Shown here in pieces: positions 1,596 to 44,188 of a stretch of DNA of 64,000 nucleotides. Source of the DNA: a bacterium (GTDB lineage Bacteria > Patescibacteriota > Microgenomatia > UBA8517); NCBI GenBank assembly GCA_030583725.1, contig CP129472.1, positions 671,040 through 735,039 of the forward strand, in the 5' to 3' direction. The notes under the pieces are model-generated. The model was not told the origin of the DNA and did no database searches. It worked only from the letters and a program-made list of their open reading frames with translations. The stretch's first letter is position 1, and every line of letters begins with the position of its first letter. The position numbers and the translations under genes were made by a program.

Positions 1596-2636
1596 AATAA
1601 ACTCTAGTTCCTCCTTTAAGTAATTAAAGGTTTAAAAATTCGACTATATGCTGGAATAACTGAGAATCTTAAGCTAGTTGTTGACTTAGGTTTTAATTCG
1701 GATAATACTTAATTAATGCCCAAATTGATAACTGAAAATGCTTTAAGTGCAGTCAATCAGCAGGGAAGATCTCGTAAGAGAAACCCTCAGAGACTATATG
1801 TCGAATATCCTACTAGTAGTAAGAATGAAATGTCTGACATAGAAGCAACTTTATTGGGTATTTTATACACCGATGGTTGTCTATCTAAAAGGAGTAAGAA
1901 TGCATGGAGATTTTATCTAAGCAACACTTCTTACATAATTATACAAGTATTTAAAAATTGTATGATCAATCTTTTTAAATTAGATGCCAAAAGAGTACGA
2001 ATATCTAAAAAACAAGTTAATGGAAAACCTTTTTACAGAGCAGTTGTAGATAGTGCATCATCTGGAGAATTTTTAAATTCAAAATATGGTACATTTCGAA
2101 CACTAGTTTTTAAAAGTGAAGATGGTAAAGAAATTTATCCTTCGACAAAATTACCGTTTAACAAAAATTCTAATCTCAAAATAATGAGCAAGTTCTTAAA
2201 AGTTGCCTTTAGTTGTGATGGTGGCATAAATTTATACGTAGCGAAATCAAAGTTTGGATACAAATTTTTGATTAGGAATGTATATTTAGCTTGCAAGCAT
2301 CCACAATTACAGATTGATTATCACGAACTTTTGAAAGTTCTTGGTATCGAATCTAAAATTATTAAGGGAGATGGAAAAATACTTATTCAAGGCAGAAATG
2401 AGTTGAATAAGTTTAGAGAAAAAGTTGGTTTTATAGAAGGTGTAAAAATAACACAAAATTCTAAATTTTGGCAAGGTGTCGAAAAGCGGAATGTGTTAAA
2501 TATCGCAATTGGTTCTTACAAAAATCCGAAAAAGATAATCAATCTTTCGAGGTTTAGAGGATAAAGATATAGTCCGATCTCATAAGCGATTATGAGACTA
2601 CGTGTTGAATCGTAGTAAACAAACACTTAGTTTGTT
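1596..2636 (+). mobile_element. group I-like intron in 16S (E. coli ~pos 790 region) carrying a LAGLIDADG ORF
   Basis: 16S sequence breaks after GCGAAAGGGATGGGGT and resumes at ATAACAAGGTCTGTAGAGACCCCTGTAGTTC. 3' part contains GATAAAGATATAGTCCGA (S-element-like AAGATATAGTCC). Boundaries approximate (+/-10 nt). Confidence 0.7.
1716..2564 (+). CDS. LAGLIDADG homing endonuclease (two-motif) encoded within 16S intron 1
   Basis: Motif 1 LLGILYTDGCLSK and motif 2 KVAFSCDGGINLY. Lies entirely inside the intron. Confidence 0.7.
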   Translation: MPKLITENALSAVNQQGRSRKRNPQRLYVEYPTSSKNEMSDIEATLLGILYTDGCLSKRSKNAWRFYLSNTSYIIIQVFKNCMINLFKLDAKRVRISKKQVNGKPFYRAVVDSASSGEFLNSKYGTFRTLVFKSEDGKEIYPSTKLPFNKNSNLKIMSKFLKVAFSCDGGINLYVAKSKFGYKFLIRNVYLACKHPQLQIDYHELLKVLGIESKIIKGDGKILIQGRNELNKFREKVGFIEGVKITQNSKFWQGVEKRNVLNIAIGSYKNPKKIINLSRFRG

Positions 2637-2951: not shown

Positions 2952-3835
2952 AGATAACACTTTGCGACCCACCAAAGTAATTTGGTGTGAGAAATCTGAC
3001 TCATATCGGGGGAACTATTGACTACGGATTATATTAGGTATAATCTAAAATCATACAATCCCGAGGGAAGTCGAGAATTTTACATGCTGGAATTTACTGC
3101 TCGTAAGAATTTAAAATTAAAAGTTTCCAATCTTCAAATGGAGATACTTTTAGGTTGTTTGCTTGGAGATGCTTGTATAACTAAACTTGGAAAAGTTCAG
3201 TTTGAACAAAGTATCAAACAACTTCCATATTTAATGTGGAAGTATAAAAAGTTAAACAATCTCGCTTACGGCATACCAACTTTTGTTAGTAGGTATGACG
3301 CAAGATATGGAAAAGAATATAAAAGTGCCAGATTCTGGCTCAGACAATATTTCAGACCATTAAGAGAAGAATTTTACCCTGAAGGAAGTAAAATTTTCCC
3401 TATTAAGTTTTCAAAATACTTTACTAAACTCGCTTTAGCAGTTTGGTATATGGATGATGGAAATATATATAAAGGTAGAAATATTAAAATTTCTGCTGAC
3501 AATTTTGATTCAAAGAGTAGGGAGGTACTTAAAAACTTACTTTTAACTAAGTTTGGTTTGGAAAGTACAATTCAGAATAGTGGGAAAATAAGAATTTCAG
3601 CGAAATCTGTCAATAGATTTCTAGGAATTGTTAAACCATATATTCATTCCAACATGTTATACAAGATTCTTTGACCCCGTAACGACTGATCCCCATAAAT
3701 ATTATTTATTTAAGAGGGAGAGATACATGATAATACGCTTGTATCAAACGTCAGCTCCTACATAGGTTTAAAACTTAAGTAGGATGAAGGTATAGTCTAA
3801 ATTATAATTATTTTTTAAATAAAATAATTGGAGGT
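2952..3835 (+). mobile_element. group I-like intron in 16S (E. coli ~pos 1070-1080) carrying a LAGLIDADG ORF
   Basis: 16S breaks after CAGCTCGTGTCGTAAGAT and resumes at GTTCCCTTCAGTGGGGTAACGAGCGCAACCC. 3' part contains AGGATGAAGGTATAGTC (S-element-like). Confidence 0.7.
3018..3674 (+). CDS. LAGLIDADG homing endonuclease (two-motif)
   Basis: LLGCLLGDACI and LALAVWYMDDGN motifs. Inside 16S intron 2. Confidence 0.75.
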   Translation: MTTDYIRYNLKSYNPEGSREFYMLEFTARKNLKLKVSNLQMEILLGCLLGDACITKLGKVQFEQSIKQLPYLMWKYKKLNNLAYGIPTFVSRYDARYGKEYKSARFWLRQYFRPLREEFYPEGSKIFPIKFSKYFTKLALAVWYMDDGNIYKGRNIKISADNFDSKSREVLKNLLLTKFGLESTIQNSGKIRISAKSVNRFLGIVKPYIHSNMLYKIL

Positions 3836-5500: not shown

Positions 5501-5511
5501 TGATGTCAAAG

Positions 5512-8930: not shown

Positions 8931-8933
8931 CCT

Positions 8934-9173: not shown

Positions 9174-9180
9174 GTTGCTC

Positions 9181-9385: not shown

Positions 9386-9430
9386 ATATTAATGTTTTGC
9401 CCAAGGTGAAGCGCAAGATGTTTACAACCT

Positions 9431-9478
9431 GGGCCGTTGGCTCAGTTGGTAAGCAAGCTTGGCCAACTGATTATTTTA
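9431..9478 (+). repeat. partial duplicate of the tRNA-Ala 5' half forming a hairpin
   Basis: First 21 nt (GGGCCGTTGGCTCAGTTGGTA) identical to the start of the tRNA-Ala that begins at 9479. Followed by an inverted complement (TCAGTTGG...CCAACTGA). Confidence 0.6.
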
Positions 9479-9551
9479 GGGCCGTTGGCTCAGTTGGTAG
9501 AGCGCTTCATTTGCAATGAAGAGGTCGGGAGTTCGAATCTCCCACGGTCCA
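9479..9551 (+). tRNA. tRNA-Ala (anticodon TGC)
   Basis: Cloverleaf folded by hand. G3:U70 Ala identity pair (GGGCCGT/ACGGTCC), anticodon loop TTTGCAA, T-arm GGGAG-TTCGAAT-CTCCC. Confidence 0.85.
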
Positions 9552-10335: not shown

Positions 10336-10374
<39 letters not shown>

Positions 10375-11838: not shown

Positions 11839-12607
11839 AACATTGTAGTTACGTAGGTATCGAATCCTACCGTCTATAATGACGCAAAACTTGGCTATAT
11901 GCTGGAATATCCGTGAAACCGTAACTTACGTTGATTTAGAATCAATGAACGGTTGAAGTATCTGACGCTACCGTGTATTATTTATATATGGTGACAATGC
12001 GATCAGTGCGGACAATCAGCAGGAAAGGCCTAAATGAGGACAACATAGGATATTTCATCTCTGGATTTACTGAAGGAGAAGGAAGTTTCAATATATCATT
12101 ACGAAAGAAACCTGATTACAAATTGGGTTGGCAAGTAGTATTGAGTTTTAATATCTCACAAAAAGATGTTTCTCTTTTGAATTTGATTCAAGAAATATTA
12201 AATTGTGGAATTATTAAAACAAGAAAAATTGATAATCTTCATTCTTTTGATGTTACCAACGTAGATGACATAACTGAAAAAGTTATACCATTTTTTCAAA
12301 AATATCCATTACTTTCAGAATCAAAGAAAAGAAATTTTTCTATTTTCTGTGAAGTTTCTAACCTTGTAAAAAGAGGAGAACACAGAAACGAATCAGGACT
12401 TAAAGAGATTTTAAATCTTCGAGAAAAAATAAATGAAGGTAAAGGTAGAACTAGAAAATACAGTATAAATGATGTTTTTCCAATTTAGGAATCCCCAGAG
12501 ACTACACGCCGAGACTCAGTTTTTATCGAATTGAGTATGATATAGTCCGACCTCATTAAGCGATTATGAGAATTTGATCTAACGAATCAAAATTAACATT
12601 AGTGAAC
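11839..12607 (+). mobile_element. group I-like intron in 23S (E. coli ~pos 1917 region, between GTAACTATGAAC and TGTTCTAAGGTAGCG)
   Basis: Interrupts the conserved GTAACTATAACGGTCCTAAGG region. 3' part has GTATGATATAGTCCGACC (S element). Confidence 0.7.
11973..12488 (+). CDS. LAGLIDADG homing endonuclease (single-motif)
   Basis: FISGFTEGEGSF motif. 171 aa. Inside 23S intron 1. Confidence 0.7.
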   Translation: MYYLYMVTMRSVRTISRKGLNEDNIGYFISGFTEGEGSFNISLRKKPDYKLGWQVVLSFNISQKDVSLLNLIQEILNCGIIKTRKIDNLHSFDVTNVDDITEKVIPFFQKYPLLSESKKRNFSIFCEVSNLVKRGEHRNESGLKEILNLREKINEGKGRTRKYSINDVFPI

Positions 12608-12738
12608 TGTTCTAAGGTAGCGAAGTTCCTTGCCAGGTAAGTTCTGGCCCGCACGAAAGGCGTCACGAGTTAGCAACTGTCTTGAGGATTCACTCGGCGA
12701 AATTGCGTTGGCTGTGAAGACGCGGCCTAATCCCACTT

Positions 12739-12770
<32 letters not shown>

Positions 12771-13170
12771 TTTGGCATTGTCTTAATAATTTTTGATCGT
12801 CTAGTATAGGAGGGAGCCGTTAAAAGCATCAGTGTAATACCTCCCGTTAGAAATTATTGGACTTACTCATTTCCCCTGAAGACGGGGAAGGGAAAAGTGC
12901 TAGATGGGCAGTTTTACTGGGGCGGTACCCTGCCAAAGTGTAACGCAGGGGCACAAAGGTTGGCTTGCTACGGATGGAAATCGTAGTGTAACTGCAAAGA
13001 GATAAGCCAGCTTGACTGCAACACCGAAGGGTGAAGCAGGTACGAAAGTAGGTCTTAGTGATCCCCCGATCCTTCATGGGAGGGACGGGGCTTAACTGAT
13101 AAAAGCTACCCCGGGGATAACAGAGTAGTCGCGCCCGAGAGTCCATATCGACGGCGCGGTTCGCTACCTC

Positions 13171-13997
13171 AACATATCGGGGTCTTCTGAAAGTGATTTC
13201 AGAATGCTGTGTTTAAATTCAACCAGTAATTTAAACAAAAATTCAACTCATAACGGTGAAACCTTATTTCATTTCGTATTATTTTCGGATAATATTAATA
13301 TGAAAGGGTAATACCGTGGGAAGTTTATCGAGAGTTCAGAAACAAGTAATTTTAGGTTCAATTTTGGGTGATGGTTACATGAGAAAGAAAACCAACGCTC
13401 ATTTGCAAATAACACATTCTTATAAACAAAAAGAATATGTTGATTGGAAATACGAAATTTTAACAGATTTAGTATTAACAAAACCCTCTAGTTATAGAGG
13501 AAATGCAGATCGGATAGGTTATAGATTTTTCACCAAATCAATACCAGAATTAACTAAATTTTACGATATTTTTTACAAAGGAAAGGAAAAGATAGTTCCG
13601 AAAGGAATTGTTTTAACTCCAATTACTTTAGCTATTTGGTATATGGATGATGGCAACAAAAGTTATAGAAGCTGTTATTTTAATACCCAAAAGTTTAGTA
13701 GCAAAAGCCAAGAAAACTTAATGGATTCATTAAGTTTAATTGGAATCAACTCTAGGCTAAATAGAGATAAAAAGTATTTTAGAATAAGAATTACCACAGA
13801 AAGTACAAAAATACTTTTTGGAATGATAAAGAAATTTATTATTCCTAGTATGTTGTACAAAATCTCGATATAACCCCGTATCGACTTGTTCCGCTTGAAG
13901 GAACAGATGGAAGTATTCCATAACACGTTGACATCCAAGATGTTTTAATTGGATGAAGGTATAGTCAAGCTATTATGTAAATAATATGGTTTTTTGC
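13171..13997 (+). mobile_element. group I-like intron in 23S (between ...GCTACCTC and GATGTCGGCTC; E. coli ~pos 2449 region)
   Basis: Interrupts CACCTCGATGTCGGCTC. 3' part has GGATGAAGGTATAGTC (S element). Confidence 0.7.
13316..13873 (+). CDS. LAGLIDADG homing endonuclease (two-motif)
   Basis: ILGSILGDGYM and LAIWYMDDGN motifs. 185 aa. Confidence 0.75.
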   Translation: MGSLSRVQKQVILGSILGDGYMRKKTNAHLQITHSYKQKEYVDWKYEILTDLVLTKPSSYRGNADRIGYRFFTKSIPELTKFYDIFYKGKEKIVPKGIVLTPITLAIWYMDDGNKSYRSCYFNTQKFSSKSQENLMDSLSLIGINSRLNRDKKYFRIRITTESTKILFGMIKKFIIPSMLYKISI

Positions 13998-14089
13998 GAT
14001 GTCGGCTCATCACATCCTAGGGCTGGAGAAGGTCCTAAGGGTTGGTCTGTTCGCCCATTAAAGTGATACGCGAGCTGGGTTCAGAACGT

Positions 14090-14387
14090 AAATAACATTG
14101 CGTTACACATTAGTAATAATGTGAGTAAATATCGACTAAAATCGGTGAAACCCTAGATTAGATTCGTCCGAGTCTAATTGGGTAATACCGAGGGTAAGAC
14201 AAAATCTTTTTAGATTTTGTATCCCGTAGAGACTGATTCGAAAGAAGAGGCATCAAATTAATTGGTGCAATACGTCGACGCCTATTAGAAAGACCTAGGA
14301 ATATGGTTAAAGTAACCTAAATTTCAGGAATAGGATGAAGATATAGTCCATGCAACTAGTAATAGTTGAATAACATGCGTGAGACAG
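14090..14387 (+). mobile_element. ORF-less group I-like intron in 23S at the E. coli ~2593 site (between GGGTTCAGAACGT and CGTGAGACAGTTCGG)
   Basis: 298-nt insertion exactly between the conserved AGAACGT and CGTGAGACAG. Contains GGATGAAGATATAGTCC (S element). Ends in G. No ORF of 60 aa or longer. Confidence 0.65.
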
Positions 14388-14516
14388 TTCGGACTCTATC
14401 CAGTGGGATCGTTCGAGTTTTGATGGGAGTTGTCCACAGTACGAGAGGACCTGGATGAAGGAATCCCTAGTGTGCCGGTTGTGTCATCAGATGCAGCGCC
14501 GGGTAGCTACATTCCT

Positions 14517-14555
<39 letters not shown>

Positions 14556-14810
14556 CCAAAGATTAGAACTCGTAGTCCGAAAGGACGAGAGACCCCCGAA
14601 AGAATATCGGGTATAACCGGAAGTAGGTGGAAGCGCCGTAAGGCGTTAAGCTTAACTTTACGGATTGGTCGAAGAAAACCTTACAACATTGTATACAAGG
14701 TATATGGTGTTAACGATTAACAAATGTTTATTCAAACTTTGCGTAGCAAAGTAGTGGATAAACCTATTATTTCTAGTATAAAATTATCCTTCAGTTGTCA
14801 GGGTATTTAA

Positions 14811-14930
14811 GTCTTGGTGATTTGAGCGTGGTGGAACTACCTGAATCCATTCCGAACTCAGAAGTAAAACGCCATAGCGCGGACGATAGTTGTGGGGCAA
14901 CCTACCGCGAAAATACGTCATCGCCAAGAC
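14811..14930 (+). rRNA. rrf: 5S rRNA
   Basis: GTCTTGGTGA...CCGAACTCAGAAGTAAAACGCCATAGCGC...GCCAAGAC. Terminal helix complementary (GTCTTGGTG/CGCCAAGAC). 120 nt. Confidence 0.8.
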
Positions 14931-26179: not shown

Positions 26180-29100
26180 TCAGGGTGCTGAAACATATTT
26201 GTTACATTTTGATTGAAGCTTCAAGAGCTCATCATTTAATTGATCGATATAGGTCTGTCTAACTGATTGTTGCTGTACAAAAGGAAGTATGGCGGGACTT
26301 GCTGCAACTGCTACAAAGTAATGAGGTTGATCCCACTCATACGGGTGCGCAATTCCTAACTCTTGTGCTTTAATTTGTGCATCAGTATTGATTTTACACT
26401 CAGGTCTATTTGGATCGTAGCACAACTCGTGCAACACCCCTGTCTTATTATCGATAAAGTAGTGCACATCAAAACACAATCCACTTTGGTGACAAGAACC
26501 TCCTGCTGTTGCGGCTTCGTTTCCATAAGAACTGCTGTATGCATCTTGGGTTTCGTAAGATCTATAAGCAGAACTTATAAACGGAGAATATCCTTGTTCG
26601 TTTATCCATGACACCCACTGTTGAACGGGGTCGACAGCTTCTTTAACCATCCAAGTATCGGTCCATAGAGAAAATCTTGCACCTTCGATTTTGTCATTTA
26701 CAGCAACAACATCGGGTACAAAAGATTCGTCATATCTAATTCCCGTATTTGCTCCTACTACAGATGTATTTAAAAGTTCTAAATTCGAACATTCGCTAGG
26801 TACAGATTTTTTTGAAGGGTATACTATCGCAGGATTATTTTTTATAATTACTTCGTTGGTTGATTTGTAAGAACTTCTCTCTATCTGGTCTGGGGCGCCA
26901 GCATTTTCATCTACTTTTTGATCATTAAGCAAATCAAAAATGGGTGAGGTAATATTTTGCCAGAAGTCGGATAATGCTTGTTTTGTTTCATCTGAAACAT
27001 AATTTTCCCAATATTGATATCCTCCATATGTTGCACCAATAATAAAAAATACTGGAGAATATCTATTTGTAAATTGCGTTAATCTACTTACATTTGGGCT
27101 TGTGATGAAATCATCTACATTCTTACTTGGGATATTTATTTCGATTGTTTTTGGCAATCCTTCATCTCCAACATCAAGAACTCTTGGGGCAGTTGGGGTC
27201 ATATCATCAAAATTATTTATATAAGGATTCGCTTGGTTTCTAGCATCAAAAAGTATAGTTCTTATTTCAAAACCTAGCTGATCTAATACAATTCCTATTG
27301 GACCCTTACTTAATATCTTATTATCAATTTCGTCCATTATTGTTGGATCTAGACCATACTCTAAGAATCTCACTCTTGTATTCTCTAAGTTTGATCCTGC
27401 AATGTAAGTATCACCGCTATAGAAATTGAGTGTGTCACGAACAGATAATTCATATTTTTGTTTTAAGGTTGGATTTGTTAGCCCATCAAACCAGTCTTTA
27501 AGTTTTGAGTTGAAACTAAGTTCAGTAGATAGATTTGTTGGTGTGCTAATAACATTGTCGTCTGCGACGGCTTTTACCTGTTTTACTTTTCCGGCCGCTT
27601 CTGTTCCGTCAAATAATACAAAATTGTGATTTGCATTTGCGGCATTTACACCGCCTTTTGTTATAACACCATCATATCCCGAACTGTAAAGATCGCTATA
27701 AAATTCTTGACTATTTGTAATATCAACATTCCTTGCATCATATATCTTGTATTTTTTTTGTACGTTCAAGTTAACAAAAATATCCGCTTCTGTAACTGTA
27801 TTTGGTGGGACTAGGGTAAAATAAGCAACTCTTGGATTTTTTCCGTCAGGTGTGAGGATTTGATAGTTGCCTTGTATGCCATTCTTAGAAACTCCGTCTA
27901 TGTCTGATTCACTAGCTAGCCTGTGAAATATCAAGACAGGTTCTTCTTTAATGATTTTATCTACTATATGATTTTCTATTTGTAAATTTTGTTGACCTGC
28001 CCTTACTTTTTGTAAGTAATCTGATTCATTATATTTAGTTGCCAACTGGTCATTATAGAGATTTATAGCTTGACTTGATGGTAGTTCTGAATTGTTTGCA
28101 GGGCTGACACTGCCAAGAAGTCTGCCAAAAGTATCATCAAACCAATTTCTAACTACAGGTAAAAACCCATCAGTTGGGGAGTAGATTTTTTGTTGAAACC
28201 AATTTGTTGGTTCTATTATAACTTTGCTTTTACTCTCCATCTCTTTTAAAAACGAATCCACTTCCCTGTATTGTTGACTAAACATAGGATTTTGATTTAA
28301 CCCCAATTCTTCAATAAATCGTTGATCGAAGTTTCTTGCTCTGTATTCAGATGCCCATGCATCCAAAGGTGTGTCCCTAATAATACTATCGTATGCTTCG
28401 CCAAATTCGTGTCCTAGTGTTTGGAGTTGTATTAAAACAGCTTCGTCATACGTAAGGCCGTGTATCTTTGATACTTCGGATGGGTCTAGTAAAAATATTT
28501 TGGCGGTTCCATTCTTGTAATTAATTCCAGTTGTTCCAAGATCTGCAGTAGGGCTATATTTTTTTAGTTCTTCAAGAGACACAAATTTATATGTAACATT
28601 ATCACCAAAGAAGTTAAAAATGGTTACATCAAGTTCTTGTCTACTTATTTTACCAAGCGAATAATCAATAATTGCCCGTTGGGGTGGAGAAAAGTCTCTA
28701 GGGCGAGCGTTTGATAAATCGATTACCGTTGGCGGTGGTCCGCCATTTGCAATGGTATATTTTTCCAACGTTGGTTTACTGGGATTTATACTGAAGCTTT
28801 CGTTGCCAATGGATCGCTTTACACTTTCTAGGTTTGGGACATTGGGGACGTTTCCGTCGTTGATACTAATTTCCAAATTAGATATGCCTATGTTTGGAGC
28901 ATTGTCAATAATAACACCATCTATTATATTTGGAGCATCAATATTAGTAGATGGCGTGTTATTTCCTCCAATCATATTTTCTAACCAGTTTCCAATTCCA
29001 CCCCGTGAGTTATTTGGAGTGTCTGGGGTGAGGGCTGTAGGTGGGGTATTTGCAGCTTGGGCCATGACATTGTTAAGATTAGTTGGTGAGCCATTAGGTA

Positions 29101-29869
29101 ATATTACAGTATCAAGTGTTGTGATTGAGACATCCCCTGTAAGGGGGCTACGAGCAATAGTATTGGTCAAATTATTTATGGTTACATCTGGAAAACTTAA
29201 ATTAACTCCAGCATTATCTAGGAGTTTTGCTAAGTGAACACTTGTTGGGTTTGGGGCTGGTAAAACAGTTCCTGGACCAAAACCTAAGGCTCCAATACCG
29301 TCACTTGGGATGGTAATTTGTTGTGTTGAAGTATTTTTTGCTAGATCACTCATACTCGGTACTGTGGAAGAAGGTAAATATTGACCTATGTTGTTTTCAT
29401 CAAAATTGACAAATCTTTTTCCGTCTAAGTCAACCTTGTCAATAGCACCACCTGGTATATTATCTGGTAACGCACCAAGGCTTGGACCATCCAATTGCAT
29501 AACAGATCCGGCGAAATTTGACCCCGGTAGGTTTGAAATTGCTCTTGCAATATCAACCCCACCTTGTCCAACATCAAAAACTAAACCTCCCCACGCAGCT
29601 ACACATCCAAAATCTGATGCAAACTGTCCATCACCACATGATTGAGTTATATCCCACGCATCTACTCCAATATTAGCTAGATTTACACCAGTATTTACTA
29701 TGGTGGCTGCTTGAATCCCTCTCCCTGTTTGAATTGCTCTCGTTAACATTGCAGAGGTACCAATATTTGTCCATCCAACACCTGTCCATATAGCATTATA
29801 TGTGCACTCGTCAGACCCTGGATTTGTTATACAGACATCGGCTGTAGTTCCGGTTTGCATTGTTGTCAT
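26180..29869 (-). CDS. large (1229 aa) secreted protein with a C-terminal peptidase M15 (VanY/LAS, D-Ala-D-Ala carboxypeptidase-like) domain
   Basis: C-terminal SCHQSGLCFDVHY (SxHxxGxAxD Zn-binding signature) and a downstream EWDQPHYF His motif. No signal peptide at the annotated Met. Reading frame stays open 27 codons upstream to 29983 (see finding on a possible fusion with the upstream gene). Confidence 0.7.
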   Translation of the reverse strand: MTTMQTGTTADVCITNPGSDECTYNAIWTGVGWTNIGTSAMLTRAIQTGRGIQAATIVNTGVNLANIGVDAWDITQSCGDGQFASDFGCVAAWGGLVFDVGQGGVDIARAISNLPGSNFAGSVMQLDGPSLGALPDNIPGGAIDKVDLDGKRFVNFDENNIGQYLPSSTVPSMSDLAKNTSTQQITIPSDGIGALGFGPGTVLPAPNPTSVHLAKLLDNAGVNLSFPDVTINNLTNTIARSPLTGDVSITTLDTVILPNGSPTNLNNVMAQAANTPPTALTPDTPNNSRGGIGNWLENMIGGNNTPSTNIDAPNIIDGVIIDNAPNIGISNLEISINDGNVPNVPNLESVKRSIGNESFSINPSKPTLEKYTIANGGPPPTVIDLSNARPRDFSPPQRAIIDYSLGKISRQELDVTIFNFFGDNVTYKFVSLEELKKYSPTADLGTTGINYKNGTAKIFLLDPSEVSKIHGLTYDEAVLIQLQTLGHEFGEAYDSIIRDTPLDAWASEYRARNFDQRFIEELGLNQNPMFSQQYREVDSFLKEMESKSKVIIEPTNWFQQKIYSPTDGFLPVVRNWFDDTFGRLLGSVSPANNSELPSSQAINLYNDQLATKYNESDYLQKVRAGQQNLQIENHIVDKIIKEEPVLIFHRLASESDIDGVSKNGIQGNYQILTPDGKNPRVAYFTLVPPNTVTEADIFVNLNVQKKYKIYDARNVDITNSQEFYSDLYSSGYDGVITKGGVNAANANHNFVLFDGTEAAGKVKQVKAVADDNVISTPTNLSTELSFNSKLKDWFDGLTNPTLKQKYELSVRDTLNFYSGDTYIAGSNLENTRVRFLEYGLDPTIMDEIDNKILSKGPIGIVLDQLGFEIRTILFDARNQANPYINNFDDMTPTAPRVLDVGDEGLPKTIEINIPSKNVDDFITSPNVSRLTQFTNRYSPVFFIIGATYGGYQYWENYVSDETKQALSDFWQNITSPIFDLLNDQKVDENAGAPDQIERSSYKSTNEVIIKNNPAIVYPSKKSVPSECSNLELLNTSVVGANTGIRYDESFVPDVVAVNDKIEGARFSLWTDTWMVKEAVDPVQQWVSWINEQGYSPFISSAYRSYETQDAYSSSYGNEAATAGGSCHQSGLCFDVHYFIDNKTGVLHELCYDPNRPECKINTDAQIKAQELGIAHPYEWDQPHYFVAVAASPAILPFVQQQSVRQTYIDQLNDELLKLQSKCNKYVSAP

Positions 29870-29952
29870 ACTTGCAAAACCTAATGATATCGCCTGAGCT
29901 CCAGTTAAGGCCCCTGTACCCCAACCAAATGGGCTTGCAATTATGCCGGCTA

Positions 29953-31365
29953 AAGCAGTACCAGTTTTCCAAGTTGTACAGAGCTAGCTACCTGTTCTGC
30001 TCCGTATCCCGTCATTTGCCTCATACATCCATAGCTTGCACTTATTCCATTCTGATCAACGCAAGCTTGGACTGCTTCTTCTGAGCTACTATATCCAAGC
30101 TGTTGCCATTGAAAAATATTGCCTGAATCAGAAAACGCTTGCAAATATCTCCCTATGATTGGTGCATTATATACTTGGTTCAACTTTTTATTACATTCTG
30201 CTGTCTGATCGTGGGTTAGTCCTTCACGGTTACAATCAGCAAAGTTGTTTGTCTGTTGCATATTTACAGTTGGTTTGGCCAACTGTGCCACGTCTTTTGT
30301 GTGCAAACTTTGTGTTATGGCATACAGTATTTCGGTGGTGTCTGCATTATTAATTGTAGATGTAACAGTTCTTAAAAATCCATCGCCTAGTTTTTCTACA
30401 GTTGGCCTGTAAGTTTGGTAGGCAACTGGTATGGTAACAGCATCAATTACTTTTTGATCTTGGTCTTTTGCAATTGTTGTTAAGTCACGTGTTGTTCCTG
30501 AATCATCACGGTTAACTTCAATGCTAACAGATGTACTTGCTATGCAAGCTCCGTTTGTACAACCATTCTGGCAATTTTGACTTACCCAGATTCCATTTTG
30601 AGAACAAGTTCTTAATGTGTTTCCACTACATTCTTTTTCTCCGCTGCTACATTCTTTGGTGCTAACTGTTACAGAACCAGTAGATGAAGTTGAACAGGAC
30701 GTTGATGTGACAACTACCTCCTCACTACAAGTTGTTGTTTTCCATATTTGACAATAGACATTGCTTGGGCAGTTACTACCATCACCACAAAAAGAGGAAA
30801 CTAGTGAGACATTACAAAAACTACCTTCAGTGTTATTGCTCTGTTGACTTATCTGATTTTGGGCTTGTTGTTGAACCTCTTGTTTGTACGTTTCCTGTGC
30901 GTATGATGGTACATTTTCAGGTTTGACTTGGCTTAAGGATCCTTCTCCTACTTTCCATCTACCGTCTGATCCACAAGTTGCATAACTTCCGATTCCTCCA
31001 TAGAGAACAACATCACCAGCAGAATATTGTTTTCCGTTGGCATCACAGGTGGTACCGGTTGAGGATGTTGTGCTGTTCGTGGTGACTGCAACCTCCTCGC
31101 CCTTGTAGTTTATATTTACACCACACTGGTTGTTACAATAAACTCTACCTTTTTCTTTTCTACATTCGTCAAAACAACTGTTACCTGAAGCCTTTTCTGA
31201 GATATTTAGGGAAAAATTCTTGTTTGTAGTAACTGCAGTACCCACAATTAAAGTAACAACCAAAAACAAGACACTAATAATACTCAAAGGGTCAATAACA
31301 CCCTTAATATATTTTTGAGATTTAGGCATTAATTCATTATATAATAGAATATGGGCTGTTATCAC
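29953..31365 (-). CDS. membrane-anchored Cys-rich extracellular protein (471 aa)
   Basis: N-terminal TM VLFLVVTLIVGTAV. CFDECRKEKGRVYCNNQCGVNINY module, paralogous to the N-terminus of the LPXTG protein at 18909. Numerous Cys pairs and Ser/Thr-rich stretches. Confidence 0.6.
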
Positions 31366-31471
31366 AATAAAATTGTGTTGACAGCTATGTTTGGGCTGTT
31401 AGTACAGTGGTAGTACACATCATTCGCATTGATGAAACGCCAGTCCGATTCTGGCACAGTCCACTTAATGT

Positions 31472-34712: not shown

Positions 34713-34943
34713 TTAGTTAGTCAAGACGGGTTCACTTTCTATTGATTCCAGTTCAATAATCCACCAGTTAAACTCAACGTCTGATTCGAGTGTTTCAGAA
34801 AAACCAACCTCAAAGTAACCAGTATCTTTAGATTTTACATATAGCACTTTGTTTTGTGTAGAAGCTATTGGTGTTATATAGATTAGAGTATTAAGAGATA
34901 CTTTGTTATTGTTTATTCTAACCTTCCTTGTGTTTGCAGGCAA
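34713..34943 (-). pseudogene. orphan copy of the C-terminal ~70 aa of the giant surface protein (no ATG; TTG at most)
   Basis: Translation ...ATAGKAVLPANTRKVRINNNKVSLNTLIYITPIASTQNKVLYVKSKDTGYFEVGFSETLESDVEFNWWIIELE is ~95% identical to the end of the 37082..44188 product. In-frame sequence upstream runs into a stop with no ATG. Confidence 0.55.
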
Positions 34944-34968
34944 AACTGCTTTTCCTGCTGTTGCATGG
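34752..34968. repeat. direct repeat copy A (~215 bp; 146-bp core identical to 37140-37285)
   Basis: Manual alignment with 37097-37313. Core CAGAAAAACCAACCTCAAAG...GTGTTTGCAGG identical. Flanks have a few mismatches. Confidence 0.85.
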
Positions 34969-37081: not shown

Positions 37082-40000
37082 CTAAATACCTTCTAATTCA
37101 ATAATCCACCAGTTAAATTCAACGTCTGTTTCTAGTGTATCAGAAAAACCAACCTCAAAGTAACCAGTATCTTTAGATTTTACATATAGCACTTTGTTTT
37201 GTGTAGAAGCTATTGGTGTTATATAGATTAGAGTATTAAGAGATACTTTGTTATTGTTTATTCTAACCTTCCTTGTGTTTGCAGGTAAAACTGCTTTTCC
37301 AGCTGTAGCATTTGAGTTTATTTCTCCTTCTACGATTGTTGCAGATTCTGTAGCAGTAGTATCAATATTATTTGCAACAATTATATTATTAATAGTTAGG
37401 TTACCTGCAACTTCAACATTACCCAAAAATTTAGTGTTTCCATCAATATCAACTGTTATTTTTCCTGCCATTATTTCAAGTGGGGTAGCTGCAAGAGATT
37501 GAATTTGTAGTGGCATATCAAGTGACTCTATTTTGTTGACAGTTAATAGGTCAGAGACAAAAAGTGATGATATTGCAGCTTGACCTGTAACATATAAGTT
37601 GTTTGCTTGTATACTTTCTGCAATCAAGTTAGTAAATGTACCATCTTCAAAAGAAGTATCAGTGCTCCAATTTTGACTTTCTGCCAATAAACTTTGGTTT
37701 GTTTCAACCTCACGCAATAATTCTTCAATTTCTGAAAGTCTGGTTGACTCAATATCATCTGCATATAATGTTCCTGAAATTGTTGCATCACCATTTACCG
37801 CTAATTGATTGGATTCAACAGTACCTTCAAAGTTTGCATTACCCAAAGAGTCAATTGATGCTACTTCTTGATTATCTTGTCCATTAATAACTAATCTTGC
37901 AGATTCAGAAGCTGAGAGATCAATGATTAAACTAGAATCTGCAATTGGGGAGATGATATTAGTTTTAATCTCTGGAGTAATTATGCCTGCAAAAATACCA
38001 ATCTGGGTAACTACTCTTTCTGTAACCACATCAATTAGTTCTCTGGTACTATATAGATAACGGTAAACTCGACTCTCCATGGACGTTGGATTTGGAGCGT
38101 AAGAATTATCAATAATTATAGTAATTGTGTCTTTTCCAGTGTTTGGTTCCCAGTTTTCAGTTGCTTTACCAATTGTACGGTCTCCAGCCATAGCTAGGGT
38201 GGCCAAACCCGGTGTTTGGGATGAGGTTAGTTCTGCTCCTGCAAAAATAGCAGGGGAGTTAGGGTCAATTTTGACCGGAATTCGACCAGCCAAACCCAAA
38301 AGCCTTCTATTTTCGGCTTCAATGCCTAAAGTTTTGCCTGCCTTGGTAGAAATAGCTCCAATTAGATTTGGGTCGTTAATTGATTTTGCCTTAGTAAGTA
38401 TAGGAACACTAAACTCATCCATTTTTCCGGTTATGGAAACTAAGTCTCCTGCACCAATTGAGTCATCATCAACTGTGTACCATTCTGCCAAATCAGCGCC
38501 AAAAACTACGGCATCAAGACGTAATTCCTGCTCTTCACCGGTGTAGTTATAAAGGCGGACGGTGTTGGTGTCAACTTGCTCAATTTTGTAGCCATCGTTG
38601 TAAGTAAGATATACATTTTCCACTTGAGGCTGATAGGAGTTGTTGGTGGTGGAGAGTATGATCCTATACTGTAAATACTCGTTCGGGGTAGAAGTTATTT
38701 TGGAAAAGTTATTATCAGTTAACAACTTTTCAGCTCTAACATTATCAATATATATAGTATTTGAGGATGCAATTAAGTTTGTAAACCTTAATTTTGTAAT
38801 AGCATCTCTTGCACCCGATTGTATGTCAGACAAATCCCAATATACCTTTTGCCAAACGTCAGCTGCGTCAATTTTTACAAACTCTTCCTGTTCCGTGCCG
38901 GCACTTTCTCCCATACCCACTTTTACAGTACTGCCAGTTTGCGAAGCTCTGATCCAAAAAGTGAGATAGTCGTAGCCGGAAAGATTAGCTGAAGTGATGG
39001 TGTCTTCAGCGTAACCACCATTGGTAGAAGAAGTAAGCTTGGTGAGATTACCGGCAGTTGCCTCATCTTCATCTTCAAACTGATCAACGTTTCTGGTGAC
39101 GTCACCATCGGCCACAGTCAAGTTAGTACCTGTCCACTCGGTATGGGTATTACCATCACTTAAATCAAGGTAGTTGGAGGTAGCAGTAAACGGTTTCCAA
39201 GCTTCCCAAGTTCCGTCAGTTGGGGACAGGGTAGAACCACTTCTGGTTTGGAAGGAAACTTTACTATATGGCACAATTGGAGTTTCCCACCTGATTGACT
39301 CAAGACTGGCTGAATTTGGGGTGCTTATTACTTTACTGTGATACAAACCATAGGTATGGTAGCCAGAGAGTGATGTGTTGGAAGCAGGGGAACTAGTTCC
39401 AGAAATCGATGACGAGTATTCAATTGCGATTCTGCCACTTCCCCCCGCTCCTCCGTGACTACCGGCGTAGCCACTACCAGCACTTCCACCCGTAGCGCTT
39501 ACCAGGGAAGATCCCAGTGTTAGGTTCTTGCCCATTATTTTGACGGAACCACCACTTGCCCCACCTCCACCTGTTCCGTGTGTAACACCGTTTGAACCCG
39601 CATTGCCGTTGGCCCTGATAGAACCGGTGACAGTAATATTTTCTGCGCTGACAGTTACTATTCCCCCAGCAGTACCGCCCGCACCACCACTCCCGGACCC
39701 CGTACCGTCTGAGTAACTTGCCCCACCTCCACCGCCAGAACCTAAATAAAGTTTTGCTAAGGTGGTGGAACCGTAGGTAGTACCAGCCAGTGTGCCGTAG
39801 GTACTTGTGTTACCAGCTGTGCCATATGATCCTCCTCCACCGCCCTGTCCTCCATTGTAAACGCCTCCGGCGCCACCGCCGATATTATTATTACCCGAAC
39901 CTATGGAATTCAAATTTGTACCAACACCATTTGAACCATTAGTCCTGTTTGGTGAAGGTCCGCCAGCTCCACCGGCGTAACCTAAACCGGTAGCGTGGAT

Positions 40001-43000
40001 ATTCCCGGCTACGGAAACTGTGCCAGTGGCTCTGAAAAACATCACACCGCCCTTGGCACCACTAAAAGCCGACGGAGTAAAGTTCATGGAGGCGTTGACG
40101 GTGACATTGTTGTAATTGGGAACTCTTTGGATCATAACTAATTGGTTGGTTCCACTGGTAGTGCCGATATTTGAATCACTACCGGCAATGTCACCGTAAT
40201 AATTAAGCTTTGAGGTTTTGAAGGTAATAATGTTTGATGAAACACTTAAAATTCGAAGAGTTTCAAAGTTTCCGACATTGTCATAGGCACTCACAATTCC
40301 TTTTAAGTTGATAAGTAATATCTCATCTCCGGCAGCAAGACAACCGCTGGCAGGGGTAGTGCTTAAAGTAGCAGTGGTTGCAGTAAGGGTAGTTACCGAG
40401 TAATTCACCGCATCGCCACCGTCGGCACAACTTCGGCCGGAAATCAGGCTGGTTGTATTTATATTTGTGTTACCTGAAACCGTAATATTCCCATCTCCAC
40501 CTGTGCCGGTATCGATAGCTGGAGTAATCTCAATATTTGTCAGTTTAGTTTGAGTGCGGGTGAGATTGCCTGTGGTAGTATATGAGTTACCATTGCCGGA
40601 ATTGTATAAGTCTGTAATTTCAGCAGCAGATAATTTTTTCTTCCAAAAACCTACTTCGTCTATTATGCCATCAAAAAAGAGTTCTTCGGTTGTATATCGA
40701 GCTCCAATTCTAAAGTTGGCTACAGTGTCAGATACAACACCAGTTTCTGAGGCTGAATCAACTGTGCCATTGTTGGCTTGGATACTGCAGGTGTCGGCTG
40801 TGGCATCATGCCAAGCGGTTAAAAAATACCAAGTCGCGGTGGAAGGAGCCCCGAGGTTATTAGCGGTGGCAGTACAAACGGTAGTGCCAGACGAATTGGC
40901 AAGAATAAACTCAAACCGGCTTGAGGTGTTGTTGTAATAGAGCTCATATTCTTTGACGGATGAACTCTCTGACTTGCTGACGATAGTTCGGTTAGCTCCT
41001 GTGCTTTCTAGGTTCACCCAAGCGCTGATGGTGAAATCAATGTCTCCTGTTGAAAGTGAGGTGTTGTCAGTAATTTCAAAAAATTCACTATTAGTGCTTT
41101 CCAAGTCTGCTCCATTATTAACTTTACCCGTACCTGAAGCGGTGGTGTTGTTGTCTGTCAGGTTGTTACTTCCATAACTATCATTACGAGTGGTAGCGCT
41201 AGATCCAGCACTGGCTTCATTCATTGTCCAGAAGCTGATTAAGTTATTAATAAGGGTACCTTGGGAATCAACCAAGAAAGTTTTTGCAGAAGCATCATCA
41301 AATTCGTTTTGAAGTGCATGTTTTACGGTTTGGGTGGAATTGGTGATAGTTTTCCAAAGACCTGTTATTTTATCCTTAATCCAAGCCGTTAAAGATAGGT
41401 CGTTGGTATTTTGGTTGTGGGCAATTTCAATATAGTTTTGATTAGCGACAGCGGCGTTGGTTTGGGAATACTTGGTCATATCCAGGGCAATACGATGCCA
41501 CGCACTATCAGATCCATATAAAAAGAGGTGGTCAGTAGAAGAACTTCCTGCTGAGTTATTATCATAAAAAATTGTTCCTTCAATAGTATTAGTAGTTGAA
41601 GAAATATTACTTGCTAGAGTTATGGCGCCATCGTTGTGAATTGTAAATTTAGTAGTTCCAGACGCACTTGCTGTAAAAATATCTCCACCTTTGTCATTAT
41701 TAACCATTAAGGCTGCCATTCCGTTATTAACTGTGTTGTTTACCCACCAGACACCATTGTCTAGGATGTTGGGACTATTAACTGCTGAAGCATCATCTGC
41801 AAATATAATAGTTGCAGTACCATCTGGGTTTGAAATTATTCTTCCATCTAAATATAAAACTCCATCAACTTCCAAATCTCCACTGATTAAAACGTCATCT
41901 GATGTAGTAAAACCATGTCCTGTTGTCGCTGTTCCAAATCTGGAGTAGGCAACAGGAGAGGTACTACCGACTTGTAATGATCCGTCAAGAGCAATTCTTG
42001 CACCAGTTGGATCAACTAATAAATATCCATTTGAATCTAATGTAAAACCAGAATAAACAGTTCCGTCAGTGTAAGTTAATCTTAATTGTTCACCTGATGT
42101 TGCCAGAGAATCAAGTTTTGCATCTGGTCCAGTTGTCCCAATACCGACGTTGCCGGCAGAGGTGTCAACATAGAGTTGGTTGGTGTTAACAGCAAAATCA
42201 CCGGTTGTGGCAAGGGAGACATTGAGGTTTTGACCTGCAGTTGGGGTCAGAGTTAATGACCCACCTGTTCCGGTGCCAGTTAAAGTCATTCCGCCTGTCG
42301 ATCCAATTGTACCTGACCAGTAGTTACTGGCGTCATATCCAAGTCTAAGTTGTTCCGTCGTTTCGTTTATGGTGAGTTTCGCCGTAGGCGATGTCGTCCC
42401 AATACCGACGTTGCCATTTTCTACAATCAGCCCATAATTATTAGTAGCTCCTGAAGCAGAGAAGTAACCACCGATATTAATTGATGTTGTTCCTGTGTTG
42501 GTGACATTTGAGTAAAGTCCATATGCAGTGTGTGATGCATTGGCGTTAGTTCCACTTCTTATAATGTCTAGTATTTTAGATGAACCACTTGCTCCACCTG
42601 CTGTAGAAGTAGAGGAGAGGTCAAATAATGTCCCTGTGGTTAATGAAGATGAAGCAAGAGAAAAAGCATCTGCTGCTGTGACTGAGTTAAAAGTAAATGC
42701 AGTGGTGTAACCTGCATGGGCTAGGGATAGATTTGCAGTTGGGGTTAGTAAGTCTGACCAAACACTACTTCCACCCCCACCACCTAAACTACTAAAATCA
42801 GTCACACAGTTTGTTTCTCCATCACCTGTACAAAACTTGGTAGCTTCAATTGTCCCATCTGAGACTGGTGTTCCAAAAGTAGAAATTCCAGAAGTCACAT
42901 ATAAATCAGCCCCAATAGTAGTTAATCCTGTTGAGTCGACAGAAAATTTTGAAGTTGGTGTTGCTCCTGATAGAAAATTAATAAAATAGTAACCAGTGGC

Positions 43001-44188
43001 ATTACTGGCAATTGTTCCTGCATATAGTGATCCAGAAGTTATGTTTGCATTTGTTGCATTTACAAAACCATTTGCACCACCACCTGGTGCTGCTCCTTCA
43101 AAAATTAGGTCAAGAGTTCCAGTGCCATCTGGATTGATGGTTATGATACCGTTTGATGTATTTGGAGTGGTTAAGGTTAGTGCTTGTCCTTCTACTGCAA
43201 AGGTGCCTGAAGTAGATTGTATTTTAGGTGATGCGGAAGCTAAAACAACTGTTCCTGTTGAATCAATGTATGGAATTGTAGATGTTCCTGTCCCCGCGGG
43301 AAAGCCTTGTAGCGTTTCTGAGTTAATAGCATATGCAACTGTTGCAATTTGTATTCTTGGTGTTGCTTCAGCGTCTGTTCCAACGGTTACACCTAACCAA
43401 ATGTCTGCATTTTCACTAAAAACACTTGAAGCAATTTCTGCTCCACAAGATGAACCAAGTAGGGTTGAAAATATACCATCTTGATCGGGTGTAATTGAAC
43501 AAGTTCCAGAATCCCAAAGTTCAGTTCCCCCGGTTGAAACTGCGTATAACTTAAAAACCATATTTGTTGCTACAGTTTCCGGGTTTCCTAGGTCATCAGT
43601 TAACCTTCCTTGAAAGGATAAAAATCTGTTTGGTCGTTCAAGAGCGGTAGGGAAGGCAAGTGACCTGTCTGTTGAGTAGAAAACCTGATCATATACCGCA
43701 TAACCTGAAAGTGATGAAAATAAAATTAAAATTGCGATATGAATATAACTTGCAAGTGGATATGAATGATACTTTCTGTACCAGTTTGGTCGGTTGAAAA
43801 ACAAACTTGTTAAAACATTCTTTAACTTAGGTTTATTAATAAACTTTGAAATTATTCTTTCTTGCCAAGACTTTGAAATTGTTCTAAAACTAGACACATT
43901 TTCAACACCACTCATAAAGTTACTACCAGTGAAGTTTGAGTAACTTCTAAGTGTTGAAAGACGCCTATTTAAAGTTGAAAGTGGGGTAGTAAGTCTTTGT
44001 GAGTTAATATACTCCCTAATTAAATTTGAGCTAACCTTGCGATCACCAGCCCAAGTTAAAAAATTAACAATATCTGATTTGTAGTATTTTAAAGATTTAA
44101 GGGAAACTCCGTGTAATTTTAAATATCTTAAAAAATTTTCAATAACTTTGGTTTTGTTTACAACTTCTGAATTATTCATTTTCCGCAA
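37082..44188 (-). CDS. giant (2368 aa) membrane-anchored surface protein with an N-terminal integrase-SAM-like segment, TM anchor, repeated NVGIGTT(S/G)P motifs, a LamG/ConA-like lectin domain and a Gly-rich region
   Basis: Residues ~15-90 (IENFLRYLKLHGVSLKSLKYYKSDIVNFLTWAG...LSTLRSYSNF) follow the tyrosine-recombinase N-terminal SAM-like pattern. TM YIHIAILILFSSLSGYAVY. NVGIGTTSPTAKL and NVGIGTTGPDAKL. FDGIIDEVGFWKKKLSAAEI (Laminin_G_3-type). Long GGxGG tracts. Confidence 0.8.
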   Translation of the reverse strand: MRKMNNSEVVNKTKVIENFLRYLKLHGVSLKSLKYYKSDIVNFLTWAGDRKVSSNLIREYINSQRLTTPLSTLNRRLSTLRSYSNFTGSNFMSGVENVSSFRTISKSWQERIISKFINKPKLKNVLTSLFFNRPNWYRKYHSYPLASYIHIAILILFSSLSGYAVYDQVFYSTDRSLAFPTALERPNRFLSFQGRLTDDLGNPETVATNMVFKLYAVSTGGTELWDSGTCSITPDQDGIFSTLLGSSCGAEIASSVFSENADIWLGVTVGTDAEATPRIQIATVAYAINSETLQGFPAGTGTSTIPYIDSTGTVVLASASPKIQSTSGTFAVEGQALTLTTPNTSNGIITINPDGTGTLDLIFEGAAPGGGANGFVNATNANITSGSLYAGTIASNATGYYFINFLSGATPTSKFSVDSTGLTTIGADLYVTSGISTFGTPVSDGTIEATKFCTGDGETNCVTDFSSLGGGGGSSVWSDLLTPTANLSLAHAGYTTAFTFNSVTAADAFSLASSSLTTGTLFDLSSTSTAGGASGSSKILDIIRSGTNANASHTAYGLYSNVTNTGTTSINIGGYFSASGATNNYGLIVENGNVGIGTTSPTAKLTINETTEQLRLGYDASNYWSGTIGSTGGMTLTGTGTGGSLTLTPTAGQNLNVSLATTGDFAVNTNQLYVDTSAGNVGIGTTGPDAKLDSLATSGEQLRLTYTDGTVYSGFTLDSNGYLLVDPTGARIALDGSLQVGSTSPVAYSRFGTATTGHGFTTSDDVLISGDLEVDGVLYLDGRIISNPDGTATIIFADDASAVNSPNILDNGVWWVNNTVNNGMAALMVNNDKGGDIFTASASGTTKFTIHNDGAITLASNISSTTNTIEGTIFYDNNSAGSSSTDHLFLYGSDSAWHRIALDMTKYSQTNAAVANQNYIEIAHNQNTNDLSLTAWIKDKITGLWKTITNSTQTVKHALQNEFDDASAKTFLVDSQGTLINNLISFWTMNEASAGSSATTRNDSYGSNNLTDNNTTASGTGKVNNGADLESTNSEFFEITDNTSLSTGDIDFTISAWVNLESTGANRTIVSKSESSSVKEYELYYNNTSSRFEFILANSSGTTVCTATANNLGAPSTATWYFLTAWHDATADTCSIQANNGTVDSASETGVVSDTVANFRIGARYTTEELFFDGIIDEVGFWKKKLSAAEITDLYNSGNGNSYTTTGNLTRTQTKLTNIEITPAIDTGTGGDGNITVSGNTNINTTSLISGRSCADGGDAVNYSVTTLTATTATLSTTPASGCLAAGDEILLINLKGIVSAYDNVGNFETLRILSVSSNIITFKTSKLNYYGDIAGSDSNIGTTSGTNQLVMIQRVPNYNNVTVNASMNFTPSAFSGAKGGVMFFRATGTVSVAGNIHATGLGYAGGAGGPSPNRTNGSNGVGTNLNSIGSGNNNIGGGAGGVYNGGQGGGGGSYGTAGNTSTYGTLAGTTYGSTTLAKLYLGSGGGGGASYSDGTGSGSGGAGGTAGGIVTVSAENITVTGSIRANGNAGSNGVTHGTGGGGASGGSVKIMGKNLTLGSSLVSATGGSAGSGYAGSHGGAGGSGRIAIEYSSSISGTSSPASNTSLSGYHTYGLYHSKVISTPNSASLESIRWETPIVPYSKVSFQTRSGSTLSPTDGTWEAWKPFTATSNYLDLSDGNTHTEWTGTNLTVADGDVTRNVDQFEDEDEATAGNLTKLTSSTNGGYAEDTITSANLSGYDYLTFWIRASQTGSTVKVGMGESAGTEQEEFVKIDAADVWQKVYWDLSDIQSGARDAITKLRFTNLIASSNTIYIDNVRAEKLLTDNNFSKITSTPNEYLQYRIILSTTNNSYQPQVENVYLTYNDGYKIEQVDTNTVRLYNYTGEEQELRLDAVVFGADLAEWYTVDDDSIGAGDLVSITGKMDEFSVPILTKAKSINDPNLIGAISTKAGKTLGIEAENRRLLGLAGRIPVKIDPNSPAIFAGAELTSSQTPGLATLAMAGDRTIGKATENWEPNTGKDTITIIIDNSYAPNPTSMESRVYRYLYSTRELIDVVTERVVTQIGIFAGIITPEIKTNIISPIADSSLIIDLSASESARLVINGQDNQEVASIDSLGNANFEGTVESNQLAVNGDATISGTLYADDIESTRLSEIEELLREVETNQSLLAESQNWSTDTSFEDGTFTNLIAESIQANNLYVTGQAAISSLFVSDLLTVNKIESLDMPLQIQSLAATPLEIMAGKITVDIDGNTKFLGNVEVAGNLTINNIIVANNIDTTATESATIVEGEINSNATAGKAVLPANTRKVRINNNKVSLNTLIYITPIASTQNKVLYVKSKDTGYFEVGFSDTLETDVEFNWWIIELEGI
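37097..37313. repeat. direct repeat copy B (3' end of the giant gene)
   Basis: See copy A. Confidence 0.85.

Follow-up and report, generated by a model that had tools for sequence, protein, structure and literature searches.

A probable recent one-base deletion splits the gene for a membrane-anchored, modular surface protein in a Microgenomates bacterium

The closest described counterparts of the gene examined here are genes inactivated by frameshift mutation, programmed -1 frameshift sites, polymorphic toxins and polyvalent proteins, and the M15B peptidases. The gene lies on the minus strand of a 64,000-nucleotide stretch of contig CP129472.1 (positions 671,040 to 735,039; assembly GCA_030583725.1), referred to below as the window, from a bacterium of the Microgenomatia (Patescibacteriota; UBA8517), where it is present as two overlapping open reading frames (ORFs), A and B. 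Ordinary split genes inactivated by a frameshift, in which spontaneous -1 slippage leakily suppresses the one-base deletion (Springstein et al. 2024, PMC10861913), have in common with the window a one-base deletion in a conserved coding region and an upstream frame that ends a few codons further on. In both cases the downstream frame is in the -1 frame without a start of its own, and suppression would need -1 slippage in a short interval; the window differs in representing an uncultured bacterium of the Candidate Phyla Radiation (CPR), and slippage rates from E. coli may not transfer to it. The programmed sites of E. coli dnaX (A_AAA_AAG) and of the IS3-family transposases resemble the locus in their -1 direction, in lysine tRNA slippage on an A run and in overlapping ORFs, but the window offers the tetranucleotide A_AAA without a heptamer and without a Shine-Dalgarno-like or structured stimulator, and its arrangement is conserved in no orthologue.

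The protein itself invites two further comparisons. Like polymorphic toxins and polyvalent proteins, it joins a conserved N-terminal part of ~600 aa to C-terminal modules that vary from one orthologue to the next, and single modules are shared in mosaic fashion; unlike those systems, the locus has no immunity gene, no recognised secretion or trafficking domain beyond a signal anchor, a conserved chromosomal neighbourhood and no evident phage or conjugative element. The last module has the SxHxxGxAxD and [E/D]xxH motifs of the M15B enzymes VanY, LdcB (DacB) and YodJ and of the phage Ply500-type L-Ala-D-Glu peptidases, but in the window it forms the last part of a giant anchored fusion and has Asp for the usual Glu in D-x-x-H.

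We conclude, with a probability of roughly 0.7, that ORF A and ORF B are one large gene that suffered a genuine and recent one-base deletion, leaving a 459-aa stub and silencing the remaining 1267 codons. The event is an ordinary recent gene disruption and not a new recoding mechanism. Its elements are as follows.

29950..31329, minus strand: ORF A, 5' portion of the split gene, 459 aa and a TAG stop
26180..29869, minus strand: ORF B, 3' portion of the split gene, 1229 aa and a stop codon, with its ATG at 29869-29867
29870..29983, minus strand: start-less open extension of the ORF B frame, 38 codons, 114 nt
29953..29983, minus strand: overlap in which both frames are open, from TAG 29986-29984 (frame B) to TAG 29952-29950 (frame A)
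29964..29970, minus strand: frameshift site GGAAAAC, a one-base deletion relative to orthologues, at the codon after Leu-Gly

ORF A (NCBI hypothetical protein WKZ25529.1 / QY322_04070) has the C-terminal end ...GAEQVASSVQLGKLVLL (in a longer listing, ...GYGAEQVASSVQLGKLVLL) and is closed by TAG 29952-29950. The frame of ORF B (WKZ25528.1 / QY322_04065) is -1 relative to frame A, and the two overlap over 11 codons; a first-pass annotation of the window had placed this stop and the overlap at the same coordinates. Upstream of ATG 29869 the ORF B frame is bounded by TAG 29986-29984 with no in-frame ATG, GTG or TTG between them, again as that annotation described, but the extension is 38 codons long and not 27, in agreement with the 38 residues of the peptide it had itself written out. 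The last 32 of the 38 codons encode conserved protein sequence, TGTALAGIIASPFGWGTGALTGAQAISLGFAS; the peptide beginning TGTALAGIIASPFGWG... is encoded in this trans-frame region upstream of ATG 29869, and the peptide TGTALAGIIASPFGWGTGALTGAQAISLGFASMTTMQTGTTADVCITNPGSDECTYNAIWTGVGWTNIGTSAMLTR is possible only by translation of the -1 frame there, the tail of frame A reading QLGKLVLL. When one A is added to the A4 run of CTTGGAAAACTGG, a single open frame results, of 1728 codons from GTG 31365 or 1716 from ATG 31329, which matches the fused protein of ~1730 aa that had been proposed; the predicted mass of the full-length protein is ~185 kDa.

Single-ORF relatives provide evidence that these two frames belong to one gene. 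With the conceptual fusion as query, eight relatives were found, and in six of them (P0002 to P0007) one polypeptide aligns on both sides of the junction without a break (BLASTP; MAFFT). A further four loci, two per collection, came from scans of GTDB genomes and of JGI metagenomes, and those with names are Microgenomates (CPR) metagenome-assembled genomes (MAGs). The junction lies within one open frame, 997 to 3014 codons long, at all seven loci with DNA, and among the distinct relatives that cover the site 9/9 are uninterrupted and 0/9 are split. Alignment of the fused protein with orthologues, which the first-pass annotation had recommended, therefore returned single ORFs, and a pair of separate genes with a secretion signal on the second was not seen among them. 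The window and the contigs of P0002, P0004 and P0006 have a common gene order (a giant Laminin_G_3 protein, a TPR/Wzy_C protein of ~620 aa, this gene and a convergent SIMPL gene), which identifies these three loci as positional orthologues.

At residue level the homology runs in frame A through Leu-Gly and in frame B from Thr-Gly-Thr-Ala, with one residue between. P0006 reads ...GYGAEQVASSVSLGTTGTALAAVMISPLGWGTGALTGIQAISLGMAAS... across the junction; aligned to it, frame A of the window reads ...GYGAEQVASSVQLG and frame B continues as given above. On the MAFFT alignment, 40/49 residues before the break are identical to P0004 and 24/32 residues upstream of the ORF B ATG are identical to P0006, and this latter identity makes the split-gene observation more than a matter of chance. 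The break falls inside the best-conserved block of the family, where identity is 0.53 within 30 residues on either side (0.6-0.7 just upstream) vs 0.38 overall; its location was judged by sequence conservation. An AlphaFold2 model of the conserved N-terminal 628 aa, built from a 6-sequence alignment, had a mean predicted local distance difference test score (pLDDT) of 38.8 and was rejected as unusable.

The codons at the site define the type of lesion.

Window: CTT GGA A-A ACT GGT ACT GCT TTA
Relative L011: CTT GGA ACA ACA GGC ACA GCT TTA
Relative L012: CTA GGA GCA ACT GGA ACT

Relatives have ACA ACA, GCA ACT, ACA AAT, ACT GTA and similar codons here. By this comparison one base is gone from the third codon within GGAAAAC, either C from ACA or A from AAAAA. 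Codons and colinear orthologues thus agree on one gene split by a -1 change of frame near GGAAAAC, where the first-pass annotation had suspected it. Repeat scans near the junction gave only short matches at chance level. Reassignment of the stop codon was considered and rejected, as frame A past the TAG meets both TAA and TGA within 15 codons.

The lesion is reproducible, as compared at the level of assembled contigs (the NCBI MAG and two Logan contigs). The deposited MAG contig of 841,695 bp has A4 at the site. A Logan contig from SRR24881069 is 100% identical to it over 12,566 nt and one from DRR859381 over 3,818 nt, A4 included in both, and the same 459-aa truncated protein is called on each. 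These results bear directly on the possibility that the real gene is intact and that its short A run was misread or misassembled, one of the three explanations offered in the first-pass annotation. Single-base indels in A runs are a common artefact on some platforms, and a MAG consisting of a single contig of 841,695 bp may derive from a long-read assembly; on the other hand, the run is only 4 bases long, to judge by the orthologue codons the missing base may equally be C from ACA or A from the run, and contigs assembled separately from two runs in different archives carry the same A4 within 100% identical flanks. With the identical A4 in both Logan contigs as well as in the MAG, random error during sequencing is unlikely, and we consider an error of sequencing or assembly very improbable.

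The same three assemblies argue against phase variation, that is, a reversible switch by slipped-strand mispairing in the A run. A surface or effector gene of a hypervariable family is a type of gene that is often phase-variable, and the indel does lie within a homopolymer. Known contingency loci, however, usually have tracts of 7 or more bases, far longer than A4; A4 is present in all three available assemblies, and the orthologues have no homopolymer at the site. This option, also raised at first pass, is unlikely for a 4-base run and ranks for us as low as a sequencing error.

The course of events may be reconstructed as follows. The intact ancestor would have been one gene of ~1716 codons for a membrane-anchored, multi-enzyme surface protein, and one base has been lost after the Leu-Gly codons, inside GGAAAAC 29970-29964, in the lineage of the window. 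Ribosomes starting at ATG 31329 would now read four wrong-frame codons (LVLL), stop at TAG 29952-29950 and release an anchored N-terminal fragment of 459 aa. The other 1267 codons, which encode the rest of the conserved block and three modules (zincin-like, ADP-ribosyltransferase (ART)-like in fold, and M15/VanY peptidase), would be essentially untranslated, because they have no conserved start and no export signal, save for rare spontaneous -1 slippage of lysine tRNA on A_AAA. We infer that the function of the gene has been lost. The lesion is probably recent, because the 1267 codons of the ORF B frame (1229 plus the 38 upstream) contain no second lesion and all invariant peptidase residues are kept. 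Of the explanations put forward at first pass, genuine disruption is thus the one favoured, both by the single-ORF orthologues and by the reproducible A4.

ORF B might instead be a gene in its own right. Under this alternative both products made after the deletion are useful, and translation of ORF B begins at ATG 29869; the NCBI annotation has two distinct proteins, the in-frame ATG lies 80 nt past the ORF A stop, and ORF B is intact. Against this, ATG 29869 is not conserved and aligns with Ser/Thr in the orthologues, initiation there would forfeit 32 conserved residues upstream, and the cut falls inside the best-conserved block. A Kyte-Doolittle scan of ORF B found no N-terminal hydrophobic segment, signal peptide or transmembrane helix, as the first-pass annotation had noted for its ATG, although its M15 peptidase and Cys pairs point to a role outside the cytoplasm. 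The upstream context is also unlike that of real starts in the window: the 25 nt before the ATG are ~60% A+T vs the very AT-rich leaders of real window genes, and no promoter or terminator signal above chance was found between ORF A and ORF B. A functional split gene is accordingly improbable in our estimation.

A further alternative is that -1 frameshifting, compensatory or specific to this lineage, yields the 1716-aa protein in a meaningful, if probably small, amount in addition to the 459-aa fragment, by slippage of lysine tRNA on GGA_AAA_C. The A_AAA at 29968-29965 is the only Z_ZZN site in the 11-codon overlap and coincides with the point at which homology switches frame, and ORF B is undamaged across 1267 codons with its catalytic residues intact. 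A Z_ZZN sequence is the minimal -1 shift site, and a 3' C makes it comparatively shift-prone (Atkins et al. 2016, PMC5009743); single-base deletions in E. coli were suppressed by spontaneous -1 slippage at an aggregate frequency of 1-10% (Springstein et al. 2024, PMC10861913). The features of a programmed site are lacking in the places searched. There is no X_XXY_YYZ heptamer in the frame A overlap (CAA CTT GGA AAA CTG GTA CTG CTT TAG). The predicted RNA fold of the 113 nt from the site has a minimum free energy of -29.8 kcal/mol vs a shuffle mean of -28.4 (z = -0.41), no better than shuffles. Upstream of the slip site there is no Shine-Dalgarno-like stimulator, and such motifs are unused by the window genes. 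The two-frame arrangement occurs in 0/9 relatives, which means that nothing here is conserved by selection. Programmed -1 frameshifting, another of the explanations first proposed, is therefore poorly supported; unprogrammed slippage is possible, and we regard a meaningful dose of full-length protein from it as unlikely.

A related and more speculative idea is that of a "savior"-type indel in a CPR-specific hypervariable effector locus, in which a low level of -1 slippage on A_AAA gives a small, tolerated dose of full-length protein. We hold this to be a shade less likely again. If true, it would represent a natural, lineage-specific throttling of expression by unprogrammed frameshift in an episymbiotic bacterium, with the multi-toxin C-terminal half (zincin-like, ART-like and M15) kept intact by the dose that slippage delivers.

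Several points weigh against the conclusion that the gene is simply disrupted. Selection acting on the downstream part by way of frameshifting or internal initiation could also explain the undamaged frame of 1267 codons. A_AAA with a C after it counts among the recognised minimal -1 slip sites and occupies the very position at which a correction is needed, so that some full-length protein may arise. The independence of the two runs is judged only from their differing archives and accessions, and 100% identity among the datasets amounts to a single clone, with population-level variation outside the sample. The GTDB and JGI scans returned no close relative at 90-99% identity, and homology search outputs that lack an intact near-identical allele carry no weight, as the window's own two proteins, which are present in the collection, were not returned either.

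Two features lie at the 5' end of ORF A.

31336..31365, minus strand: promoter-like site GTGATA-18-TATAAT, 10/12 consensus matches, a consensus match only
31219..31287, minus strand: transmembrane or signal-anchor helix LSIISVLFLVVTLIVGTAVTT, residues 15-37 from the ATG, Kyte-Doolittle peak 2.68

ATG 31329 is almost certainly the real start of ORF A, judging from the alignment, because all homologues begin there; the length of 471 aa reported at first pass, from GTG 31365, is accordingly corrected to 459 aa. The promoter-like site ends 6 nt before ATG 31329, and GTG 31365 lies inside its first hexamer, GTGATA, which explains the spurious "start" in a mechanical ORF list. ORF A comprises an N-terminal membrane anchor, a Cys-rich ectodomain (22 cysteines in ORF A) and the first half of the family's most conserved block. 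Its helix at residues 15-37 is strongly hydrophobic and is the sole clear hydrophobic helix in the whole 1716-aa protein by Kyte-Doolittle scan, in accord with the N-terminal anchor that had been assigned to the fusion, and the segment is kept in all homologues as invariant alignment columns.

Directly upstream of the promoter-like site, on the opposite strand, a tRNA-Ala(cgc) gene occupies 31393-31464 (+), within the 142 nt that separate ORF A from the TPR/Wzy_C gene. Across the whole window, a Shine-Dalgarno motif precedes 0/29 well-defined genes; upstream regions are AT-rich, and a TATAAT-like box often stands a few bases before the ATG. This pattern suggests that the window genes have leaderless or short-leader mRNAs.

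The broken gene is a member of a small Microgenomates (CPR) family of membrane-anchored surface proteins whose architecture combines a conserved N-terminal part of ~600 aa with interchangeable C-terminal enzyme or effector modules. The conserved part corresponds to ORF A plus the first ~130 residues of ORF B and consists of the signal anchor, the Cys-rich ectodomain and a Gly/Ala-rich conserved block. The N-terminal 1000 aa have no Pfam or NCBIfam matches and no recognised secretion or trafficking domain (markers of type V, VI and VII secretion systems, RHS, filamentous haemagglutinin and similar). Three modules were resolved when ORF B residues 430-1229 were used as query in an exhaustive HMMER search; by direct sequence search ORF B had no match in the PDB and, in NCBIfam, only a sub-threshold match to LdcB.

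28130..28579, minus strand: module 1, ORF B aa 431-580, GHEFGEAYD...WASEYR
27563..27985, minus strand: core of module 2, ORF B aa ~629-769, predicted structure resembling the ADP-ribosyltransferase fold
26183..26782, minus strand: module 3, ORF B aa ~1030-1229, M15B / VanY-LdcB-type zinc peptidase domain

For module 3, the window protein scored alone against Pfam VanY reaches 21.1 bits, below the cut-off of 25, but its homologues P0010, P0013, P0015 and P0016 pass at 33-39.5 bits and match the window domain at E values of 1e-36 to 1e-21. A profile of the module matches the solved structures of LdcB, YodJ, VanY and Ply500 in the PDB (4mph 2.7e-16, 4jid 3.4e-16, 4ox3 5.4e-16, 2vo9 5.7e-10, 5hnm 1.8e-9). 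The signature H-x6-D ... D-x-x-H is intact (SCHQSGLCFD, WDQPH), and H112, D119, D165 and H168 are invariant in the subfamily alignment. Profile search thus confirms the C-terminal VanY-like peptidase recognised at first pass.

Module 2 has no PDB sequence match by profile; its AlphaFold2 model, from a 9-sequence alignment, has a core pLDDT of ~90 and agrees weakly with the ART fold by Foldseek. The active site, compared by sequence with the H-Y-E type of ADP-ribosyltransferase (diphtheria toxin, PARP, RES), has an invariant His (FHRL), a conserved AYF and Asp (IYD) as the invariant acid. Module 1 has no match in Pfam or, by profile, in the PDB; it may be a zincin-like metallopeptidase, as distant homologues carry HEAGH (HExxH). 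In this module (window 28130-28579, and P0034/P0035), the clade that includes the window has HEFGE or HELGE vs the canonical HExxH (HEAGH) of those distant homologues, which may reflect a changed metal ligand or an inactivated zincin-like domain.

The C-terminal halves of orthologues are different again: transglutaminase-like in P0001, a protein kinase in P0003, FHA in P0004 and P0006, and in P0006 also ART-PolyVal (PF18760), a Pfam family named after polyvalent proteins. Among these relatives P0001 (JGI, 1168 aa) is a mosaic. Over its N-terminal 352 aa it matches ORF A at 60% identity; the conserved QWQQLGY...LGxTGTA block is missing from it, its C-terminal end is formed by the transglutaminase-like domain, and its ART-like module, 71% identical to module 2 of ORF B, is the only C-terminal module it has in common with the window. 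This mosaic is evidence of module shuffling in the family. The architecture works like that of a polymorphic or polyvalent effector, but membership in those systems is not demonstrable because there is no immunity gene and no known trafficking domain and the chromosomal locus is conserved. Directly downstream no immunity gene was found, the neighbour being the convergent SIMPL gene in the window and, in L012, an AAA_14 gene followed by SIMPL. Literature searches for Microgenomates polymorphic toxins, and for the run and protein accessions, returned nothing.

For annotation, QY322_04070 and QY322_04065, entered as "hypothetical proteins", should be treated as a single disrupted gene. As a mutation the frameshift is ordinary, and the gene family that it exposes is the more interesting part of the result. 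That family, small and uncharacterised, consists of giant membrane-anchored Microgenomates proteins encoded at a conserved locus, with C-terminal modules (peptidoglycan peptidase, ART-like, kinase, FHA, transglutaminase-like) that are swapped between species. Such an architecture would be expected of effectors of host interaction or antagonism in CPR bacteria, about whose lifestyle little is yet understood. Should a strain with the naturally truncated allele ever come into culture, it could be used as a natural knockout.

The remainder of the window contains further large or unusual genes. The giant protein of the conserved neighbourhood has 2368 aa (37082-44188, minus strand); it contains a Laminin_G_3 domain and shows a Phage_int_SAM_1-like match at its N-terminus. 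In related contigs the same position is taken by larger orthologues (at least 2640 aa; 3196 aa), and the L013 copy has a weak Peptidase_S74 match. A direct repeat of 221 nt, with copies at 34746-34966 and 37091-37311 that are 96% identical and 2345 nt apart, has one copy as the 3' end of this giant gene. The repeats flank a low-GC (28-32%) cassette of a 274-aa ORF and an AAA_14/DUF4143 ATPase gene, which is absent between the giant gene and the TPR gene at the orthologous loci L011 and L013.

At the left of the window, an rRNA operon with large insertions spans 855-14929 (+). Its small-subunit rRNA matches fall into separate parts, 855-1666 and 2745-4136, and LAGLIDADG endonuclease ORFs occupy the gaps (1716..2564 and 3018..3674); no 3' end of the 16S rRNA was located. 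The large-subunit rRNA at 9840-13222 is ~450 nt longer than the model and contains a LAGLIDADG ORF at 11973..12488. The operon also includes tRNA-Ile (8859-8932), tRNA-Ala (9479-9552) and 5S rRNA (14813-14929). Inside its span, on the opposite strand between the 16S fragments and tRNA-Ile, lies a 771-aa ORF (5970-8285, minus strand) with the domains of a type IV secretion coupling protein (TrwB_AAD_bind, TraG-D_C).

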